From assembly GCA_003228115.1 (NCBI GenBank), contig QEVV01000004.1, positions 165,577-229,576 on the forward strand: a stretch of 64,000 nt of DNA. Direction: 5' to 3'. The position numbers were made by a program, and so were the translations under genes. The notes beneath the pieces are model-generated. The model was not told the origin of the DNA, ran no database searches, and worked only from the letters and a program-made list of their open reading frames with translations. This document shows positions 2,296 to 51,380 of the stretch, one piece after another (within the stretch, counting starts at the first letter, position 1; every line of letters begins with the position of its first letter). This DNA is from Chloroflexota bacterium. GTDB taxonomy: Bacteria > Chloroflexota > Dehalococcoidia > Lucifugimonadales > SAR202-VII-2.

Positions 2296-2425
2296 CTTAG
2301 AAGACCGTCCGACACTAGCCTCCACCCTTATTGGCGGGCTAGCCCTGCTAAGAGGGCCCTCTCCCTTGCAGCGCCCGCCGGGATACACTAACGTAGCTTC
2401 ACTACTAACAAGTTGGAGGTCGGCC

Positions 2426-3595
2426 ATGGTAGAAGCAGCCAAGAAAACACTCCGTATCGACGCTGACAGTCACTTTCAACCCCTCCTAGACCACGACTCT
2501 CTGTCCGTCCTGCTGCCAGACTTCGAGCCAAGGCTCGTGGACATGATCGCACGGGACGCCGCCGTCTTCTCTGACCCCAATGCACGTGGCGGGGGCTTCA
2601 GTGGCTCGGCAGCAGGCCAGCAGGTGGGAGCCTTGGTGGGCGGCATCGCTGCCCCAAAGAGTTCTGGGCCCATAGGCCACGCTGAGTTCGAAGAGCGCGC
2701 CAAGCTGCTTCCTGCGACCGGATTCGACATGCAGGTGCTCATCCCTGATGGCGTTTTCTTGGAGAAGCCCTTCAAGTCGCCGATTGAGGTGGCCGAGTCA
2801 GGGATCGACCCTCTCATCCGCTACGCGCTGTGCGTCGGTTATAACAACGCCGTATCCCAGGCGCAGACCACCTTGGCCAACACCTTCATCGGCGGGGCGC
2901 TGGTCCCCTTCGGCGGTGGCACCGTGCAACAGTGCTGCGACGAAGCCATCAGAGGCGTCAAGGAACTGGGCCTCAAGGCCATCGTCATCAACGACAACTG
3001 GGCGGGCCGCAACTACGATTCGCTTGACCTGTACCCCTTCTGGCAAACCGTCAACGACCTGAACGTGCCGATCATCGTGCACCCTGCCCCCTTTGCCTGC
3101 CAGGTCACAGACCATGTGCCTCGCACCTATCGTCTGGGCTGGGAACGCATGCGGCGTCTACACATCAGCAACTACTTGGGCTTCGCCTTTGAGTATATGG
3201 TGGCCCTCGCCAGCCTCACCCTGGGCGGCGTATTCAAAGAGTTCCCCAACCTCCGCTTCTGTTTCTACGAGGCTGGCGGCTCCTGGCTTCCTTGGGTCAT
3301 GTTCACTCTTGACCACACCTACAATGTGGAGCGCCAGTGTGCTCGCTGCGACATACCCCCCAGCGAGCAGATCATGAAGTCTTGCTTCATCGCCGTGGAG
3401 CCCTACGAAGAACCCATCGTCGGGACCATTGCACAGGTGGGAAGCAAGAATTTCCTCGTGGGCAGCGACTACCCCCACCCACCCTCCACCTTCCCCAACA
3501 CCGCCGTAGGAATCGAACGGCTGGAGGGCCTGACGCAGCAAGACAAGGACAACATCCTGGGCATCAACGCTCGGGCCGTTTTCCAGGTTCCCTAA
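2426..3595 (+). CDS. amidohydrolase family protein (PF04909/ACMSD-like metal-dependent hydrolase)
   Basis: N-terminal IDADSHF metal motif and C-terminal VGSDYPHP motif. Start moved to ATG 2426, which is preceded by GGAGG at 2415-2419. Confidence 0.85.
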   Translation: MVEAAKKTLRIDADSHFQPLLDHDSLSVLLPDFEPRLVDMIARDAAVFSDPNARGGGFSGSAAGQQVGALVGGIAAPKSSGPIGHAEFEERAKLLPATGFDMQVLIPDGVFLEKPFKSPIEVAESGIDPLIRYALCVGYNNAVSQAQTTLANTFIGGALVPFGGGTVQQCCDEAIRGVKELGLKAIVINDNWAGRNYDSLDLYPFWQTVNDLNVPIIVHPAPFACQVTDHVPRTYRLGWERMRRLHISNYLGFAFEYMVALASLTLGGVFKEFPNLRFCFYEAGGSWLPWVMFTLDHTYNVERQCARCDIPPSEQIMKSCFIAVEPYEEPIVGTIAQVGSKNFLVGSDYPHPPSTFPNTAVGIERLEGLTQQDKDNILGINARAVFQVP

Positions 3596-6479: not shown

Positions 6480-6575
6480 GGGGTGCAGGGGCGCAGCCCC
6501 GCCGGGGGTCACAGGGGGTGTCCCCCTGTACCAAAGACGTTAGAGGGTGGGCCGGACGGGACAACAGCGTTAGCC
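6480..6575 (+). repeat. Family-A structured intergenic element, copy 2 (inside the mrp cluster)
   Basis: Sequence gggtgcaggggcgcagccccgccgggggtcacagggggtgtccccctgta..gacgttagagggtgggccggacgggac. Confidence 0.85.
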
Positions 6576-12131: not shown

Positions 12132-12206
12132 GCCCCCGTAGCTCAGGGGATAGAGTGCTGGCCTCCGGAGCCAGAGACGGGAGTTCGAATCTCCCCGGGG
12201 GTACCA
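12132..12206 (+). tRNA. tRNA-Arg (anticodon CCG)
   Basis: Cloverleaf readable by eye. Acceptor gcccccg/cgggggt, D-arm tagctcaggggatagagtg, anticodon stem-loop ctggc-CTCCGGA-gccag, T-arm gggagttcgaatctccc, encoded CCA. Confidence 0.9.
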
Positions 12207-13360
12207 CCTTTCTCCTGTAGGGTTGGATCAAACTCCCGCGGGGTTTGGGATGGTTTACCCGAGCGCAGGAGCCTCAGTGGAGAGAACTCCTCAAGCTCCC
12301 CTAAAAGATCGTACTGCACGTATCGATCCGTTACACCCCCAGAGGCGTGTCCGAGCAACCTTTGGGCTACGTCCAACCGTCTTGAGAAGCGAAATACCCA
12401 CGTAGCGAACGTATCTCTAACGTCGTATGCGGCAGCCTCCACGCTAGCCTGCCTCAACATGGCCCTGAGGACATCCCCAATGCCACGAGAACTCAGCGGA
12501 AGTCCGTTCTTTACGGCCCGAAAGACAGTTTCGTCGTCAGCAAGGACTCCCCCCAGGCCACCAAGTAACGCCATGGTCTCCGGCAGCACCGGCGAGGGCG
12601 TCCGCCTGGGCTGGCCACTCCGCCTCTTCTGTCGCCGGTTAATAAGACGATCGTCTCCGACCCTTCGCACATCACCTGCGGTAAGCCTTGATTGCTCTAT
12701 CGGACGCCATCCGTGCCCAAAGGCCAAATGCCAAATTGCTTGATCCCTCGGGGATTTTTCGAGGGCGTCAACAGCCGCTGCCTCTCTGCCTCCCAGAGGA
12801 TTCGGTCCCGCCGAATCTACGCTGTCCTTAGACGGAGGGGCAACCGGGTTTCTCTCTAGCAGCCGCATAGAATCAATGGCATGCTGGTAGAGCCGTCGAA
12901 GGCTTGATTGTCGATTGAACCGCGTACGCCCGGTCGAGCCAGTCCAATGAAATTCCAAGAACTCTCGGATAGGCTGCCACTCCACCGGTAGAAAACGGAA
13001 TTCTCGCGCAAAAGGACCCCAGGCCTTCTGCCCCTCAGTAACGGCAGGCCTATGATCATTAAAGAGCAACTCCCTAACTAGGTCGTCAACGACATCGTTC
13101 GTCGGTATCGGGTGGTGGGCATTACTGACTGGCGGTGGCTGGGCAGGACGAACAAGTCCAAGGCACTCCCAGGTCGCTTTATGTAGCCGACCTCCTTCGT
13201 AACAATAGCCGAATGACGCCTGGGGCCAAGGCATTCCGAGAAGGGGATGAGGAGGAACACCCCAAAGCGGGGATTGCGTTGCAAACGTTGAAGATGAAAT
13301 TGGCCGACCTCCTCTACCAGTGAAATCCCCAAGTGGGCCGTTCGCAAAGTAACGACCCAT
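12143..13360 (-). mobile_element. tyrosine recombinase / phage-type integrase
   Basis: Box I GWRPIE, box II YDVRDTFATW, and LLGHASGGVTDRYV (His...Tyr nucleophile). The last 21 sense codons plus the stop (12143-12208) run antisense over the tRNA-Arg gene. The N-terminal start is uncertain. Confidence 0.8.
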
Positions 13361-18494: not shown

Positions 18495-19373
18495 CTACCG
18501 CTTCAAGCCGGAGTCGGCTGTCTTGTGTCGGTTGGGATCGGACTTCGTCGTCGCTAAACGCGGATCCACAAATTGGTGTGTCTCGTAGGATCTGTTGAAC
18601 CGTTCAAGGCACATGAGGAACCAGCCAATCCCACCCTCCATCCAGCCGAATCGCACGTTGGGATACTTGTCCAAAACACCGTTGAAGACAATGCTGGCAA
18701 AAGAAGTCATCAGGGTAACTGGGTGCCCCAACGCATGCGCTGAGGCCAGATACTCGAAGGTGTCGAAGCCCAGGCCAGAGTGGCCCCCGGCATGAGCGGC
18801 CATCATGCAGCCCAAACGGTTGGCCTCTTCATAAACGGGCCAATATTCCTTCGCTCCGTGATGCCTCCCAAGGTTCGGGGACGGGAGGATAGCGCCACAA
18901 AAGCCAAGGTCCGTCACAGCATGGTTCAGTTCTTCAACCGCCGCTTGAGGCTCGATCATCGGGATTATGCCCAGCCCCTTGAAGCGAGGGCTGCGTTGAA
19001 CGTAGGTCTGGTGCAGCCAGTCGTTGTAGCCTCGGGTCACCGCAATGGCCCATTCTCGGTTCGTTATCATACCGCTCGTCAGGGCCCTCGTGGCAAAGAG
19101 AACGGCGGTATCGATGCCGACATCGTCCAGAAAGTCGACCCACCCATCGGCGTCAGCTTGTACAAAGGAACCCTTGGGGTGGCGCACCGGTTGCGCAGCG
19201 TGCAGGTGGTCGGCCGCTGGAAACAGGCCCAAGCTGTTGTTCCAGCCCCTAGCCTGCCTGGCGACCAAGTCCTTGGGGATCAGGTCCTCCGGCATGAACT
19301 CGCCGATGGCATCCATGTCCTCGACCAAATGCCCGTCCCCATCGATAACAAGTTCCAGGTTCGTGTCCGCCAT
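18495..19373 (-). CDS. amidohydrolase family protein (PF04909-like)
   Basis: MADTNLELVIDGDGHLVE N-terminus. Start set to ATG 19373, preceded by AGGAGG. Paralogous to 2426-3595, 40173-41216 and 41459-42505. Confidence 0.85.
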   Translation of the reverse strand: MADTNLELVIDGDGHLVEDMDAIGEFMPEDLIPKDLVARQARGWNNSLGLFPAADHLHAAQPVRHPKGSFVQADADGWVDFLDDVGIDTAVLFATRALTSGMITNREWAIAVTRGYNDWLHQTYVQRSPRFKGLGIIPMIEPQAAVEELNHAVTDLGFCGAILPSPNLGRHHGAKEYWPVYEEANRLGCMMAAHAGGHSGLGFDTFEYLASAHALGHPVTLMTSFASIVFNGVLDKYPNVRFGWMEGGIGWFLMCLERFNRSYETHQFVDPRLATTKSDPNRHKTADSGLKR

Positions 19374-19490
19374 GTTATGCCTCCTAGGCTGATCACCTCG
19401 ACTACCAACGCAATCCCACCGAAGCATGCCAAGCGCCACTCGTCACTGCTCAAAAACCAAGACGCCCACTCGCGCCCTTCAACCCTCTTT

Positions 19491-21584: not shown

Positions 21585-21767
21585 GGAGTCCTCCGCACGT
21601 TTTCGGAAGGTTATGGCTATCGCATGGCGAATCTAATGCTTAGGAGGCGGCTGGTCAATAAGCAACCCGTCGAGCCTCTGCCAGGCGCTTCCCTTGACGA
21701 CGTCCCATCCCCGCTGTGGCCTAGATTGCCGTCGCACAAGTAGGGGGGACTCGTTGAGGCCGCCTCA

Positions 21768-21950
21768 GAAGTCGAGACGGCAGTCGAAGGGCACCGAAAG
21801 TCGTTAACGACAGTCGTAGGGGCATTTAATTGAGGCTGTCTCAAAAGTCGACCGGTCAATCTAAGGGCGCCGAAAGTCGTTAATGACAGTCGTAGGGGCG
21901 TTCAATTGAACGCCCCTACGACGCTGGTTTAGCAACGAGAATCGCTGTCC
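21768..21950. repeat. two tandem units of about 76 bp ending in a family-C 30-bp perfect palindrome plus tail
   Basis: Units 21768-21844 and 21845-21920 share ccgaaagtcgttaaYgacagtcgtaggggc. The palindrome cgtaggggcgttcaattgaacgcccctacg lies at 21891-21920. The tail ggtttagcaacgagaatcgctgtcc recurs inverted at 26191-26216. Confidence 0.8.
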
Positions 21951-22028: not shown

Positions 22029-22679
22029 CTATACGGGCCCGTACTTCCCCGACGCCCTCAGTGACATGTAGTTAGGCAGCGCCCTGTCCTTGAACCGGTC
22101 CCGCGAGAATACGGTCATCCACTCATCGAGAGGCCGTAGCGTACTTTCTGTCCCTGGCACGAAACCCTGCCAGTTCCTTGCGTGCTCTTCCGACCGGAAG
22201 AGGTTCATGCTCGCTCACTTCATTGCCCAGTCCATCTGAGTCGACAACTCCACCGGAGAATAGCCCACTACGGTACCGGGGTCCGACGACACTAGCACAC
22301 CATTCCGTACCTCCACGGCAACAGGGTCGCCGCAGTCCAGACAGAGCGCGTCTATGCGAATCGTCTTTCCTGGGAAAAGCCAGCACACGGCCAGCGATTC
22401 CAACCCTCACTGACCGTACCAGCGTTTCTGCCTGCCGATAGTGATGCGATAGTGGGTCGGCAGACTGCTGAAGGGCGCAATGGACACAATGGTGTCCGTG
22501 CCGGGGTGAAGCCACATGGGAATCCCCGAGGCCGCTAGATCATGGACAGCCTGTCTTCCCTCCTCCACCGGCAAAGCCAACTCCCTGGCCACCTCAGTGA
22601 AGTGGGGAGCCCTGCCCGTCTCAACAAATGAGCGGGTAATGAAATGGTATGTCCTGTCCAACAGTTCAATATCAGCCAT
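22029..22679 (-). CDS. MerB-like (alkylmercury lyase family) protein with two in-frame UGA codons; candidate selenoprotein (216 aa, U91 and U155)
   Basis: Three same-frame segments are joined by TGA at 22409-22407 and 22217-22215. ATG at 22679 is preceded by AAGGAAGG; TAG at 22031-22029. N-terminal HTH-like part, then YGQ-U-GLESL and AMK-U-ASMNLF align to MerB YAWC96ALD99TL and SFC159CHVHFF. Confidence 0.7.
22185..22202 (-). promoter_or_regulatory. SECIS-like hairpin 2
   Basis: The RNA CUCUUCC-GGUC-GGAAGAG is a perfect 7-bp stem. The GGUC loop starts 19 nt after UGA-2. Confidence 0.55.
22373..22401 (-). promoter_or_regulatory. SECIS-like hairpin 1
   Basis: The RNA GGAAUCGCUGGC-CGUGU-GCUGGCUUUUCC begins 6 nt after UGA-1. 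It has 10 pairs including two G.U, one 2x2 internal loop, and a GU in the apical loop. Confidence 0.5.
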
Positions 22680-22948
22680 GTACCTTCCTTCAAAATTCAC
22701 CCAGACACAAAGAAATAGAAACCTTCTGGGACCTTATCATGCTACCCATTGAGTAGGCCCGTGGCCTTGGTCGTCCGCTTCCTCGGAATCGTACGGTAAC
22801 CCTTCCTAGCGACCTATCTCTCTATGATCCCCTCGGCATTGCTCCAATAAATATCCGGAATGGCGCGAGCTTGCCCCAACTCTTGCCATACCCCTGCAAA
22901 CACCTCTATACCTTGCATCCTTCACACGGAGCCCGCATTTGCCGAAAT

Positions 22949-23035
22949 GGGGTGCAGGGGCGAAGCCCCGCCGGGGTCCGGGGTGTCCCCGGAAAGAACG
23001 TTCGAGGGCGGGCTGGTTGGGACAGCGGCGTCGGC
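22949..23035 (+). repeat. Family-A element, copy 3
   Basis: Sequence ggggtgcaggggcgaagccccgccggggtccggggtgtccccgga..aacgttcgagggcgggctggttgggacagcggcgtc. Confidence 0.85.
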
Positions 23036-23117
23036 TAAACCAACACCTTCGTCTTCATTCGCCCAGGTGCGCCGAAGGCCTGCTATCCCCGTCGCGTAAG
23101 TGCCTCGCGACCCCCTC

Positions 23118-23209
23118 GTGGCGCAGGGCGCAGCCCCGCCGGGGGTCTGGGGGTGCCCCCCAGATCTAGAAACGTTCGAGGGCGGGCTGGGCGGGACCGC
23201 GGCGTCAGC
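23118..23209 (+). repeat. Family-A element, copy 4
   Basis: Sequence gtggcgcagggcgcagccccgccgggggtctgggggtgccccccaga..aacgttcgagggcgggctgggcgggac. Confidence 0.85.
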
Positions 23210-23412
23210 TATTCATGGCCGTCAGATAACCCAGCGTCCCATTCTATGACCTGTCGTCAGCACGGCCAGTGGAAGAGTAACTCTTCGCCCAAGTTGTGAC
23301 TTGGAAGGCAGCTCCGCAAACACCTCTCAAGCCAGGTAGGCCGACGCTACGGAACCAAACCAGCCTCGACGCCCATGCACTTCCGAGCTAACATCGTGGA
23401 GGCATTTCACCC

Positions 23413-26216: not shown

Positions 26217-26246
26217 CGTAGGGGCGTTCAATTGAACGCCCCTACG
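26217..26246. repeat. Family-C 30-bp perfect palindrome (REP-like)
   Basis: Sequence cgtaggggcgttcaattgaacgcccctacg, preceded by the inverted tail ggacagcgattctcgttgctaaacc. Confidence 0.85.
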
Positions 26247-26279: not shown

Positions 26280-26555
26280 AGCGGCCACTCCAACCTGTTC
26301 ACCGCGGGTGCAGGGGCACAGCCCCGCCGGGGGAGTGGGGGTGTCCCCCACACAACTAAACGTTCGAGGGCGGCGGGTGGGAAAGCAGCCTCAGCCACAC
26401 CGAACCTTCAGGCAAACAGCGGCCACTCCAACCTGTTCACCGCGGGTGAAGGGGCACAGCCCTGCCAGGGGAGTGGGGGTGTCCCCCACACACAACTAAA
26501 CGTTCGAGGGCGGGTGGGACAACAGCCTCAGCCACACCCAACCGCTCGCCCTCAG
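26280..26555 (+). repeat. 138-bp tandem duplication, each unit containing a family-A element (copies 5 and 6 at 26306-26396 and 26444-26534)
   Basis: agcggccactccaacctgttcaccgcgggtg... occurs at 26280 and again at 26418. Confidence 0.85.
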
Positions 26556-35956: not shown

Positions 35957-36046
35957 GGGTGCAGGGGGCTTGCCCCCGCCGGGGTCTGGGGTGTCCCCAG
36001 AACAAGAAACGTTCGTGGGCGGTGGGGGGGGAAGACGGCGTCTGCG
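35957..36046 (+). repeat. Family-A element, copy 7
   Basis: Sequence gggtgcagggggcttgcccccgccggggtctggggtgtccccaga..aacgttcgtgggcggtgggggggg. Confidence 0.8.
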
Positions 36047-36106
36047 CTGCCACCCCTCAGCCAACACGAAGCTCCAACCTTTTGTACCCGACCACCCGTC
36101 CTACCG

Positions 36107-36168
36107 GGGTGCGGCGGCGCAGCCCCGCCGGGGGTCACAGGGAGGGAACAAGGGGGAATATTCGTTTG
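36107..36168 (+). repeat. Family-A element, copy 8 (degenerate, 3' part missing)
   Basis: Sequence ggggtgcggcggcgcagccccgccgggggtcacagggaggg... Confidence 0.6.
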
Positions 36169-39938: not shown

Positions 39939-39967
39939 CGTAGGGGCGTTCAACTGAACGCCCATCG
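39939..39967. repeat. Family-C palindrome, diverged copy
   Basis: Sequence cgtaggggcgttcaactgaacgcccatcg. Confidence 0.7.
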
Positions 39968-40018
39968 CTCGCCACCCAACGACGTTCGCCAATGCCGTAG
40001 TCGAGGCCCCCCCCCAAA

Positions 40019-40172: not shown

Positions 40173-41216
40173 ATGATCATAGACTGCGACACCCACTACC
40201 TGCCCCGCACATGGCTCGACCGCGTCGATCCCGCCCTCGTTGGCGATGCCATCGCTATCGAATGGAATGGCGCTGACGGTGTGTTCTATCGCAATGGACG
40301 CCGCGTCATGGACCTAGCGGAACCAGTGTGGAATCTTGAGCAGCGAGTGCCAGGCATGCAGCAGGATGGGTTCGACCTTCAGGTGCTTATCCCGGAGAAC
40401 CGGCCACTGCTCTATGAGACGGACCGCGACCTGGGGTGCGCCCTCGCCCGAGCCTACAACGATGCAGCAGCCGATGACTTGAAAGCAGGCGGTCCCTTTT
40501 TCGGCGTCGCTTGGGTCTACCTGCCCGATATCGAAGAGGCCATCGTTGAGATGGAGCGGGCTGTAAAGGTCCTCGGACTTAAGGCCGTAAAACTCATGGG
40601 GAACTTCGGTTCAGTTCACCTGGGCGGCCCGGAGCTGCAGCCCTTCTACGCCAAGGCTGCCGAGCTTGATGTTCCCATTATCCTCCACCCACCAGCCCGC
40701 ACCTACGACGACCAGCCGATCAACCCCTTGTTGGTTGGGGCACCCAGCTTCGAGCACGAATATTGGTTCCTCTCGTCGGCGTATGGCTTTCCCTTCACCT
40801 ACATGGTCACCATTGCCAACCTCATTTTCAGCGGCACCATGGACCGCTTCCCAGACCTCCGCTTCGGTTTCTTCGAGGCTGGCGGCGAATGGGTCCCCTA
40901 CGCTATGGATAGGCTGGACGTTTACTACGACGAACACTACCGCCGCGGGACAGAAGTCGTTACCAAGCTCCAGCACAGACCCTCTGAGTACTTCACTAGG
41001 TTCTATGTTGCCATCCTCTCTCGCGAGCGCCACCTCCCTGCCCTATTGCAGCAAATCCCAGACCATCGCCTCATTGTGGGCAGCGACTTCCCGCACCAAG
41101 ACCCTAGTGGCACTTGGCCCGACACCCTCTCCGAGTTGCGAGGCATAGAAGGCTTCGCCCCCGGTGACCTTAACGCCATGCTCGACACCAACGCCCGTTC
41201 CTTCCTGGGCCTCTAG
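40173..41216 (+). CDS. amidohydrolase family protein (PF04909-like)
   Basis: MIIDCDTHY N-terminus, IILHPP, FFEAGGEW and VGSDFPH motifs. Confidence 0.85.
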   Translation: MIIDCDTHYLPRTWLDRVDPALVGDAIAIEWNGADGVFYRNGRRVMDLAEPVWNLEQRVPGMQQDGFDLQVLIPENRPLLYETDRDLGCALARAYNDAAADDLKAGGPFFGVAWVYLPDIEEAIVEMERAVKVLGLKAVKLMGNFGSVHLGGPELQPFYAKAAELDVPIILHPPARTYDDQPINPLLVGAPSFEHEYWFLSSAYGFPFTYMVTIANLIFSGTMDRFPDLRFGFFEAGGEWVPYAMDRLDVYYDEHYRRGTEVVTKLQHRPSEYFTRFYVAILSRERHLPALLQQIPDHRLIVGSDFPHQDPSGTWPDTLSELRGIEGFAPGDLNAMLDTNARSFLGL

Positions 41217-41458: not shown

Positions 41459-42505
41459 CTAAAGCCCGTACAAGCGGCGAGGGTTGTCATCCATAATCTT
41501 GTCCACTGCCTGCATCGGAATAACGCCCGACGTCCGCAGCTTGCGCAACGCCTCCAGCTCACTGGACGTGTCAGCGTGGCCGTAGTCGGAGCCGATCAAC
41601 AAATTGTCCTCCCCTGCGTACCCTAAGATATAGGGAAGGTCGTCATCTGTCTGGCAAGCCACAAACATCTGGTAGTCCTTCATCAAGCTTCCTACCGTCC
41701 GGTCGGGAAAGGCCCACGACATCCTCTGGAACCGGGCCGATAGATCGTGCATAACGTAGGGCACCCAGGACGCACTGACCTCTACGAAACCCCAGCGCAG
41801 GTCAGGGAACTTCTCCGGGAGTTGGGCCACCACGATGCAATGGAAGGCCGCTATCGCCGGCACCTTGGCAAGCCACAACAATGCCAGGTTGGACGTCATC
41901 ACCGCGTCGAAGAAGGGACTCGCTGATCCAGCGTGAAAGCAAATAGCCAAGTCCAGCTTGCTTGCTTCTTCATACAAGGGGAAGAAGTAAGGGTCGATCG
42001 GGATTCTGCTTTGCTCCATGCCCCGCATGAACACCCCTGAAGCCCCGTTTTCCTTCCCAAAGTGGAGTTCAGCCAGTGCCTGGTTCATATCCATGGTCGG
42101 CGCCATGACCACCCATCCTAGACGGCCCTTGGCCGCCTTCCAAATGTCGGCCATCCAGCGGTTGTAGCCGCGGCACATGGCCGCTTCCACCTCCGGCCGG
42201 TTGAACGACAAATTTAGAAAGATGGTCGGGTATAACACCTGAACATCTACGCCCAACTCGTCCATGTGACTAAGGCGAGCGCTAACATCCACCATGTCCG
42301 AGCTTTCGACAGCCGTACCAGTCCTTGCCGGGTCGAAGGTCCTACGGGTCTGTAACCGGCCTTCAATGTTCCAGTAGGCACGTTCTTGTCCTTGCCCATC
42401 CGGAGCCATCACCGTAGTAGGCTGATACTTCTCGTCCGCATCAACCATGTACGACCAAGTGTGTTCGTTCTCGATAACGTGGCAGTCAGAATCAATGATC
42501 GGCAT
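41459..42505 (-). CDS. amidohydrolase family protein (PF04909-like)
   Basis: MPIIDSDCHV N-terminus, FVEVSASW and IGSDYGHAD motifs. Confidence 0.85.
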   Translation of the reverse strand: MPIIDSDCHVIENEHTWSYMVDADEKYQPTTVMAPDGQGQERAYWNIEGRLQTRRTFDPARTGTAVESSDMVDVSARLSHMDELGVDVQVLYPTIFLNLSFNRPEVEAAMCRGYNRWMADIWKAAKGRLGWVVMAPTMDMNQALAELHFGKENGASGVFMRGMEQSRIPIDPYFFPLYEEASKLDLAICFHAGSASPFFDAVMTSNLALLWLAKVPAIAAFHCIVVAQLPEKFPDLRWGFVEVSASWVPYVMHDLSARFQRMSWAFPDRTVGSLMKDYQMFVACQTDDDLPYILGYAGEDNLLIGSDYGHADTSSELEALRKLRTSGVIPMQAVDKIMDDNPRRLYGL

Positions 42506-51348: not shown

Positions 51349-51380
51349 ACGTAGGGGCGTTCAATTGAACGCCCCTACGT
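51349..51380. repeat. Family-C perfect palindrome (32 bp), probable terminator
   Basis: Sequence acgtaggggcgttcaattgaacgcccctacgt, followed by ttgtt. Confidence 0.85.

Follow-up and report, generated by a model that had tools for sequence, protein, structure and literature searches.

A MerB-Like Gene of a Chloroflexota Bacterium With Two In-Frame UGA Codons, Each Followed by Its Own SECIS-Like Hairpin

The MerB-Like Gene and Its Product

A stretch of 64,000 nt from a Chloroflexota bacterium (assembly GCA_003228115.1, contig QEVV01000004.1, positions 165,577 to 229,576), referred to as a whole as the window, carries on its minus strand a gene related to the organomercurial lyase MerB that is crossed by two in-frame UGA codons. 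The two UGAs, called here UGA-1 (site 1) and UGA-2 (site 2), are 64 codons apart and each has a separate hairpin downstream, resembling a bacterial selenocysteine insertion sequence (SECIS). The analysis described here leads to the view that the gene very probably encodes an enzyme of the MerB family in which both metal-binding catalytic cysteines (Cys) are selenocysteines (Sec, U), each UGA being recoded by its own SECIS element. The coordinates of the gene and of the other features are collected in Table 1.

Table 1. Position of the features described in the text, in window coordinates.
Feature	Position	Strand	Description
MerB-like gene (predicted selenoprotein)	22029..22679	-	ATG 22679-22677, 216 codons, stop TAG 22031-22029
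Shine-Dalgarno-like AAGGAAGG	22683..22690	-	3 nt 5' of the ATG; putative, from reading of the sequence
UGA-1	22407..22409	-	codon 91, predicted to be read as Sec; aligns with MerB Cys96 (MerB/MerB2 alignment)
Glu94	22398..22400	-	at the position of the MerB catalytic Asp99 (C-x-x-D to U-x-x-E)
SECIS-1	22373..22401	-	lower stem GGAA/UUCC, 2x2 internal loop, upper stem-loop GCUGGC-CGUGU-GCUGGC
CxxC motif Cys113-Leu-Asp-Cys116	22332..22343	-	all four residues 100% conserved in 81 sequences
UGA-2	22215..22217	-	codon 155, predicted to be read as Sec; aligns with MerB Cys159, the position of Sec in SaoL
SECIS-2	22185..22202	-	CUCUUCC-GGUC-GGAAGAG, starting 12 nt after UGA-2; loop 22195-22192
Repeat family	2200-2242, 6480-6522, 22949-23043, 23117-23217, 26305-26485, 35957-36148		interspersed, intergenic
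Repeat family (continued)	41239, 47695, 50697, 61218, 62873, 63755		interspersed, intergenic

The translation shows the active-site pattern U91-G-L-E94 ... U155. For profile and structure-database searches both stops of the window protein were replaced by Cys. The sequence matches the Pfam family MerB (PF03243) with an E-value of 1.9e-18 and 67.1 bits, against a gathering cutoff of 27, as well as the solved structure of MerB2 (PDB 5c17) with an E-value of 1e-8 over residues 58-188, a span containing both UGAs. In the alignment to the solved MerB and MerB2 structures, UGA-1 falls on Cys96 (in the motif W-C-A-L-D), Glu94 on Asp99 and UGA-2 on Cys159. In MerB, Cys96, Asp99 and Cys159 hold the mercury and protonate the leaving carbon; as far as alignment can establish it, the two UGAs demonstrably occupy catalytic Cys positions. 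The acidic residue of the pattern, Glu94, is Glu in 100% of 81 sequences. As for the CxxC motif, Cys116 is near the position of MerB Cys117, and from the sequence it is possible that residues 113-116 form a thiol pair for metal hand-off or resolution.

The structure of a full-length relative (P0002), translated with Trp at both Sec sites, was modelled by AlphaFold in place of the window protein. The predicted local distance difference test score (pLDDT) is 94.5 over the whole length, the part after the second UGA included, and the only significant matches of the model in a fold search of the PDB are MerB and MerB2 (E-value 2e-9). Furthermore, a separate public assembly record (L161) is identical across the whole gene.

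Hairpins Downstream of the Two UGA Codons

The mRNA after UGA-1 reads GGGUU and then GGAA-UC-GCUGGC-CGUGU-GCUGGC-UU-UUCC (22401-22373), that is, a hairpin of 10 pairs (two of them G.U) whose 5-nt loop (22389-22385) starts after 17 nt; the 17-nt upper stem-loop (22395-22379) begins 11 nt after the UGA. The fold energy is -11.4 kcal/mol for the 29-nt hairpin alone and -12.2 kcal/mol for the 50 nt from UGA-1. After UGA-2, a 12-nt spacer (GCGAGCAUGAAC) leads into a perfect 7-bp stem, CUCUUCC paired with GGAAGAG, which closes a 4-nt loop, GGUC, starting after 19 nt. This second element encodes Leu-Phe-Arg-Ser-Glu-Glu and has an energy of -9.1 kcal/mol when folded alone. Both hairpins were recovered by RNAfold, and their position, stems, loops and spacings are those described in the initial annotation of this DNA, which had been made from the sequence alone.

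The published model of the bacterial SECIS (bSECIS) has a loop of 3-9 nt, an upper stem of 4-16 bp, 16-37 nt between UGA and loop and a minimum free energy of -7.5 kcal/mol or lower; the loop carries a G in its first two positions and follows the pattern N1-G-[G/U]-N-N2, with N1 and N2 able to pair (PMC13188914, Fig. 2). When scored against this model, both hairpins fall within all four published criteria. Site 1 combines a 5-nt loop with a 6-bp upper and a 4-bp lower stem, site 2 a 4-nt loop with a 7-bp stem, and both the spacings (17 and 19 nt) and the energies (-11.4 and -9.1 kcal/mol) are inside the limits. The loop pattern is represented by GGUC at site 2 and at site 1 by C-G-U-G-U in the window and by G-GUC-U, A-GUU-U and similar loops in relatives. 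The N1-N2 positions of site 1 are a covarying pair in the relatives and a C/U mismatch in the window.

The two elements can also be compared with the SECIS of Escherichia coli fdhF. In its minimal form the E. coli element is a 17-nt stem-loop placed 11 nt from the UGA, with a bulged U17 and with G23/U24 in the loop (PMC8659212). The layout of site 1 is exactly the same (11 nt plus 17 nt) and that of site 2 is longer by one nucleotide in both parts (12 nt plus 18 nt); both loops contain G-U, and the bulged U is absent. The fdhF element is as described in the initial annotation: it reads UGA-CACGGCCCAUC-GGUUGCA-GGUC-UGCACC, with the GGUC loop starting 18 nt after the UGA, and in 5419 of 5426 E. 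coli genomes fdhF contains an exact copy of the 42-mer UGACACGGCCCAUCGGUUGCAGGUCUGCACC.... Like this element, the hairpins of the window lie within the coding sequence and have a small apical loop with GGUC or G-U, which starts at 17 and 19 nt instead of 18 nt. In contrast, their loops are out of register by -1 and +1 nt, their stems are unrelated in sequence and, in site 1, a conserved tandem U.G/G.U replaces the bulged U17.

Hairpins fitting the loose bSECIS criteria are frequent in the window, being found downstream of 14.5% of its 1859 TGA trinucleotides. A strict filter (6 or more stacked pairs, a loop of no more than 5 nt with G[G/U], loop start 16-20 nt after the TGA), whose criteria were set post hoc with the hairpins already seen, is passed by 9 of the 1859 TGAs (0.5%), and two of these nine are UGA-1 and UGA-2. 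None of the other seven is in an open frame.

Conservation of the UGA Codons in Relatives

Searches retrieved 496 relatives from a collection with one genome per species and 516 from metagenomes; the best 80 of each were read, giving the 160 relatives to which the following counts refer. Their identity to the window protein is about 45-55% (at most 55% for any relative found), and they come from Dehalococcoidia and other Chloroflexota, Desulfobacterota, Binatia, Poribacteria, Nitrospinota and others. All are collinear with the window gene over its whole length, the alignments are gap-free, and the spacing between UGA and apical loop is invariant.

Both sites are TGA in 146 relatives, 13 have Cys at site 1 and TGA at site 2, and one has Cys at both; taken site by site, TGA is found in 146 of 160 at site 1 (Cys in 14) and in 159 of 160 at site 2. 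Beyond each UGA the frame continues, open and conserved, in 159 relatives; the other one (L104) has one further in-frame stop. More distant full-length relatives, 17-36% identical, carry Cys at both sites. The Cys/Sec pairing typical of selenoprotein families is therefore seen twice in the same gene, with the UGAs set against the catalytic Cys residues of MerB, against the distant Cys-containing relatives and beside TGA-containing orthologues elsewhere. The residue preceding Sec155 is Lys in the window protein and Ala or Arg in the relatives, never Cys. As judged from these alignments, the gene is clearly intact, and purifying selection acts on it across both UGAs.

The conservation in TGA-containing orthologues on which the initial annotation had made its claim depend is strong: besides the 146 TGA/TGA relatives, the stems are intact in 135 of 138 distinct TGA forms at site 1 and in 128 of 149 at site 2. 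The contrast that it had drawn with a decaying pseudogene is borne out as well by the frame conserved in 159 of 160 relatives and by the region after UGA-2, which is modelled confidently as part of the MerB fold.

Selection on the Hairpins at the RNA Level

Synonymous conservation was measured as the probability of codon identity between two sequences that agree in the amino acid, compared with the gene-wide expectation. Over 81 sequences, synonymous sites are at the gene-wide background in essentially every column except for codons 95-99 (TCG CTG GCG GTC TGC) and 160-165 (CTC TTC CGG TCG GAA GAG), and these two blocks are exactly the stems and loops of the two hairpins. Within them Ser is encoded by TCG in 98-100% of cases, Arg by CGG in 93% and Leu by CTG or CTC in 95-97%. 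In SECIS-2 the codons CTC, TTC, CGG, TCG and GAA are fixed at 93-100%, though six codons are available for each of Arg and Ser.

The conservation of the stems greatly exceeds that expected from the proteins, when each protein is kept fixed and synonymous codons are redrawn from the codon usage of the family itself. Intact site-1 stems are seen in 97.8% of sequences compared with 10.7% expected, intact site-2 stems in 85.4% compared with 4.6%, and the GGUC loop in 94.9% compared with 25%. Likewise, 95.6% of the cells that should be paired are paired at site 1 (78 distinct sequences) and 98.0% at site 2, against at most 58% in slid controls, in which the partners were shifted by 1-3 columns. The window site-2 hairpin is identical to the family consensus.

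Covariation of both hairpins in orthologues, also named in the initial annotation as a check, is present and confined to a few pairs (21-25 and 15-31 at site 1; 16-33 and 22-27 at site 2). The loop-closing pair 21-25 of site 1 occurs as GU (31), GC (16), AU (13) and CG (5), the synonymous third base of an Ala codon tracking the first base of the next codon, which is for Cys, Arg or Gly. At pair 15-31, GC is exchanged for CG in six distinct sequences. At site 2, the pair 16-33 changes from CG to UA in 10 distinct sequences among the 160 relatives (7 in the first 81) through a Leu-to-Phe replacement coupled to a synonymous GAG-to-GAA change, and the pair 22-27 from CG to GC in 1 sequence. The covariation is limited because conserved amino acids prescribe a large part of each stem. 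In fact, the codons for Leu-Phe pair with those for Glu-Glu and the codon for Leu with that for Trp, and since the stems are partly built from conserved residues the constraints on protein and RNA overlap, which is the usual situation in bacterial SECIS elements.

The hairpins follow the presence of the UGA. All pairs of the site-1 stem are kept in 135 of the 138 TGA forms versus 8 of the 12 Cys forms (Fisher p = 7e-4), and in the only Cys form at site 2, belonging to the Cys/Cys relative (L051), the hairpin is lost. Both hairpins are, on this comparative evidence, demonstrably under RNA-level selection tied to the presence of UGA. By conservation, codon bias and covariation, the initial reading, in which two Sec codons are served by separate, conserved bacterial SECIS elements, is supported.

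Proposed Mechanism and Known Systems

In the mechanism proposed here, SelB carrying GTP and Sec-tRNA(Sec) would bind the apical loop and deliver Sec at the UGA in place of release, the signal for recoding being the G-U or GGUC of the loop about 17-19 nt after the UGA. Recoding would be needed twice per protein, and failure at either UGA would give a fragment of 90 or 154 residues. We infer that SelB binding and Sec insertion would take place in the host. By homology, the two selenolates of the U-x-x-E...U site would hold an organometal (an organomercurial or some other compound with a carbon-metal(loid) bond) between them, with Glu94 as the proton donor for the leaving carbon; the chemistry and the substrate of the enzyme are predictions from its relatedness to MerB. 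Its role is probably not classical mercury resistance, because the gene lies outside a mer operon.

The solved enzymes MerB and MerB2 (PDB 3F0P and 5C17; EC 4.99.1.2) share with the window protein the Pfam family, the fold, and two chalcogen ligands with an acidic residue three positions after the first. Unlike them, the window protein has Sec/Glu/Sec instead of Cys/Asp/Cys, is only 15-23% identical, scores far below the models of canonical MerB (27.6 bits versus 193 for NF009710 and 24.1 versus 200 for NF033555) and has no merR, merT, merP or merA near its gene.

A closer comparison is offered by SaoL (NCBIfam NF040728; Haft and Gwadz), the sole MerB-like selenoprotein in the catalogues of 2022 and 2026, which has one Sec in a CU dipeptide, is encoded in a nine-gene SAO locus and has its Sec reported to align with MerB Cys159 (bioRxiv 10.1101/2022.07.06.499078). 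SaoL resembles the window protein in the MerB fold, the Sec at the Cys159 position, the location outside a mer operon and the truncation of database entries at the UGA, and it occurs in anaerobes. It is also the best NCBIfam match, yet at 45.7 bits versus a cutoff of 140; by these scores the window protein is nearer to SaoL than to canonical MerB and far below all three cutoffs. In contrast to the window protein, with Sec at both positions, SaoL keeps Cys at the Cys96 position. The CU motif is missing from the window protein (M-K-U, with A-U or R-U in relatives), and the neighbouring genes are unrelated and variable.

Bacterial selenoproteins with more than one Sec are known, namely a UxxU metal-binding protein, an FmdB-family regulator and MduS (table in PMC13188914), and with these the window protein shares the presence of more than one UGA-encoded Sec in one chain. 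In the two UxxU entries of that table the Sec residues lie in one short motif, whereas here they are 64 codons apart, each with its own SECIS; by analogy with the MerB structures, we infer that they would meet only in the folded active site. No description of a two-Sec relative of MerB was found in a literature search in which BSepDB was not inspected and, as far as could be checked, a two-Sec MerB-like subfamily has not been catalogued previously.

Alternative Explanations

A number of observations weigh against the recoding of both UGAs as Sec. In the single sequence, the folding energy of the hairpins is no better than that of dinucleotide shuffles (z = +0.28 and -0.31), so that the touchstone proposed in the initial annotation is not passed; short coding hairpins rarely pass such a test, and the excess over chance is drawn from the comparative data, not from single-sequence energy. 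A scan of the window with Rfam at gathering thresholds returned two tRNAs only and no match to a SECIS family. The bulged U17 of the E. coli element is found in neither hairpin, and among 136 distinct TGA-form site-1 sequences the window alone has the loop CGUGU, in which a C/U mismatch occupies the closing position. The covariation, though real, is limited to one or two pairs per hairpin, and the relatives examined are the best 160 of about 1000 retrieved. Genes for selA, selB, selD and tRNA-Sec are absent from the 64-kb window, the first three having been sought by Pfam scans of about 40 of its open reading frames (ORFs). Finally, on the chemical side, the release of the product from a diselenolate-Hg complex could be very slow.

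Some of these points would suit a selenoprotein gene by ancestry that is silent or truncated in this host, for example one recently acquired without the Sec machinery: no sel genes are in the window, a phage-type integrase gene and a tRNA-Arg lie side by side at a distance of about 9 kb, no relative found exceeds 55% identity to the protein, and the site-1 loop is atypical. Such a history is nevertheless improbable, given that both SECIS elements and the whole frame are intact, that site 2 is identical to the family consensus, that no att repeat was found in the window and that the flanking genes have Chloroflexota homologues. Moreover, a 1.28-Mb contig of a related Chloroflexota organism (L164) encodes another selenoprotein, of the DUF3179 family (L164:5946-7142, minus strand), whose hairpin GGGCAU-CGUGU-AUGCCC has a loop identical to the atypical one of site 1.

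The UGAs might instead be read as a standard amino acid, either through reassignment to Trp or Gly or by near-cognate decoding as Cys or Trp, in which case the hairpins would stimulate read-through or pausing and not SelB binding. Gene callers used for public records do place Trp at both sites in full-length relatives, and Sec machinery is not visible in the window. This explanation is very unlikely, as TGA ends 11 of 45 long ORFs of the window, a complete PadR gene (ending at 1105) included, the relatives span phyla with the standard code, and both positions are Cys in homologues and in the solved MerB structures, forming the classic Cys/Sec pair. In addition, the loops carry the G-U/GGUC motif at SECIS spacing, and several of the hosts, known from metagenome-assembled genomes (MAGs), have been catalogued as selenoprotein-rich, those of L011, L036 and L067 being among the most selenoprotein-rich bacteria (PMC13326102).

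Just as little credit can be given to the idea that the hairpins are a by-product of the amino-acid motifs LAVCW and LFRSEE, devoid of RNA function. The codons for Leu-Phe are indeed complementary to those for Glu-Glu, and the motif F-x-S-x-E is conserved in Cys-containing MerB relatives too; but only within the hairpins are the codons fixed (Arg CGG 93%, Ser TCG 100%, Leu CTG 95%), 85-98% of stems are intact when redrawn codons for an unchanged protein predict 4.6-10.7%, compensatory changes connect synonymous with non-synonymous sites, and the stem decays where Cys replaces UGA.

That the gene is a decaying pseudogene, with TGAs as inactivating mutations and hairpins due to chance, is next to impossible: the single-sequence z-scores near 0 and the loose SECIS-like hairpins after 14.5% of window TGAs would agree with it, but both TGAs recur in 146 of 160 relatives at about 50% identity with any other in-frame stop in one locus only, they sit on catalytic Cys positions, protein conservation continues past each of them with synonymous variation at background, and a separate public assembly record is identical.

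Annotation of the Family and Possible Significance

Public records of the family reflect the difficulty of annotating in-frame UGAs. Full-length members among public proteins (P0001-P0023 and P0058) have Trp at both Sec positions, evidently because these come from short contigs that the gene caller translated with a TGA=Trp code; this Trp-for-Sec translation is a systematic artefact that hides selenoproteins. Many other public family proteins end exactly before site 2, and a search of 1.8 billion representatives gave many fragments ending at profile position 90 or 155, or starting at 93 or 159. Family members with a single Sec appear in public records as a 155-residue "organomercurial lyase" or "hypothetical protein." The DUF3179 gene of L164, which belongs to a known selenoprotein family, was similarly split by gene calling into two ORFs, joined by an in-frame TGA (V-T-W-U-P-L-C). 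In the gene calls of another contig from related Chloroflexota, a DUF3179 gene shows the same two-ORF split (L168:5262-6456).

At least 146 related genes in MAGs and metagenome contigs have the two-UGA layout, and in the collections searched the public entries of the family are 90- or 155-residue fragments or "organomercurial lyase" stubs. The counts of merB-like genes and the selenoproteomes derived from environmental surveys could therefore be distorted. The family also provides a clean natural case of two independent SECIS elements in one bacterial gene, where selection on RNA can be separated from selection on protein, and a test bed for SelB recognition beyond Proteobacteria and Firmicutes.

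From a chemical perspective, Sec in place of both metal-binding Cys residues would alter metal affinity, pKa and leaving-group chemistry, and poses the questions of what organometal(loid) the enzyme acts on and how the product leaves. A broader proposal, which is rather unlikely and put forward tentatively, is that of an uncatalogued, widespread MerB-like family that cleaves carbon-metal bonds outside mer operons with a diselenolate site, U-x-x-E...U. If this were true, the family would be a candidate for methylmercury demethylation independent of mer in anoxic sediments, groundwater and the deep ocean. Many mercury methylators also belong to the Desulfobacterota, Chloroflexota and Nitrospinota, and activity of these enzymes on methylmercury would have a bearing on mercury cycling in anoxic and deep-sea habitats.

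Genomic Context and Other Features of the Window

The neighbours of the gene in the window encode a phosphotriesterase (PTE), an epimerase, an amidohydrolase, an MFS transporter and an HtrA protease. No common neighbouring partner was found across the flanks of 80 genomic relatives, nor is there a mer or SAO locus near the gene in the window or in the relatives. A closer syntenic orthologue was not found either: where contigs carry a neighbouring gene of 84-90% identity, synteny does not extend to the MerB-like gene. A subset from Dehalococcoidia/SAR202 (L002-L012, L015, L028 and L036) has the MerB-like gene between regulator and binding-protein genes, that is, a divergent regulator with HTH_3 and PBP_like domains (11-12 loci) and a binding protein of the SBP_bac_11 type (ModA/WtpA-type; 8 loci). 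These flanks hint at a link to oxyanion transport in that clade.

The tRNA-Arg (CCG) and the phage-type integrase gene mentioned above are found at 12132-13360, the integrase on the opposite strand, and could mark the boundary of an integrated element, some 9 kb from the MerB-like gene. A genomic island was considered and discarded, as no repeat of the tRNA-Arg 3' end (att) was found in the window.

With regard to stop codons, the long ORFs of the window end with TAG in 25 cases, TGA in 11 and TAA in 9, an unusually TAG-rich usage for a G+C content of 59%. The ORFs 773-1105 and 1112-2086 were considered as a selenoprotein gene joined by TGA and rejected, being the complete PadR gene followed by a separate gene, with TGA as a true stop. 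The list of other same-frame ORF pairs joined by TGA in the window was likewise set aside, as it is dominated by spurious G+C-rich ORFs.

The G+C-rich repeat family of Table 1 (GGGGTGCAGGGGCAAAGCCCCGCCGGGG...) is intergenic, interspersed and present in 14 copies; a second module (AACGTTCGAGGGCGGGCTGG...GGGAC), of which there are 9 copies, frequently comes after it, and a short way upstream of the MerB-like gene the repeat occurs twice. These repeats look like repetitive extragenic palindromic (REP)-like or miniature inverted-repeat transposable element (MITE)-like sequences. A perfect 30-nt palindrome, CGTAGGGGCGTTCAATTGAACGCCCCTACG, has exact copies at 21891-21920, 26217-26246 and 51350-51379 and an 83% copy at 39939-39968. 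The first of these is about 110 nt downstream of the stop codon of the MerB-like gene and adjoins a 76-nt unit repeated in tandem at 21740-21891.

Finally, the 64-kb window is rich in hydrolytic and catabolic genes: it contains four paralogous Amidohydro_2 (PF04909) genes at 2366-3595, 18495-19439, 40173-41216 and 41459-42505, in addition to genes for a phosphotriesterase, a hydantoinase B, a molybdoenzyme of the xanthine dehydrogenase type and a cupin.

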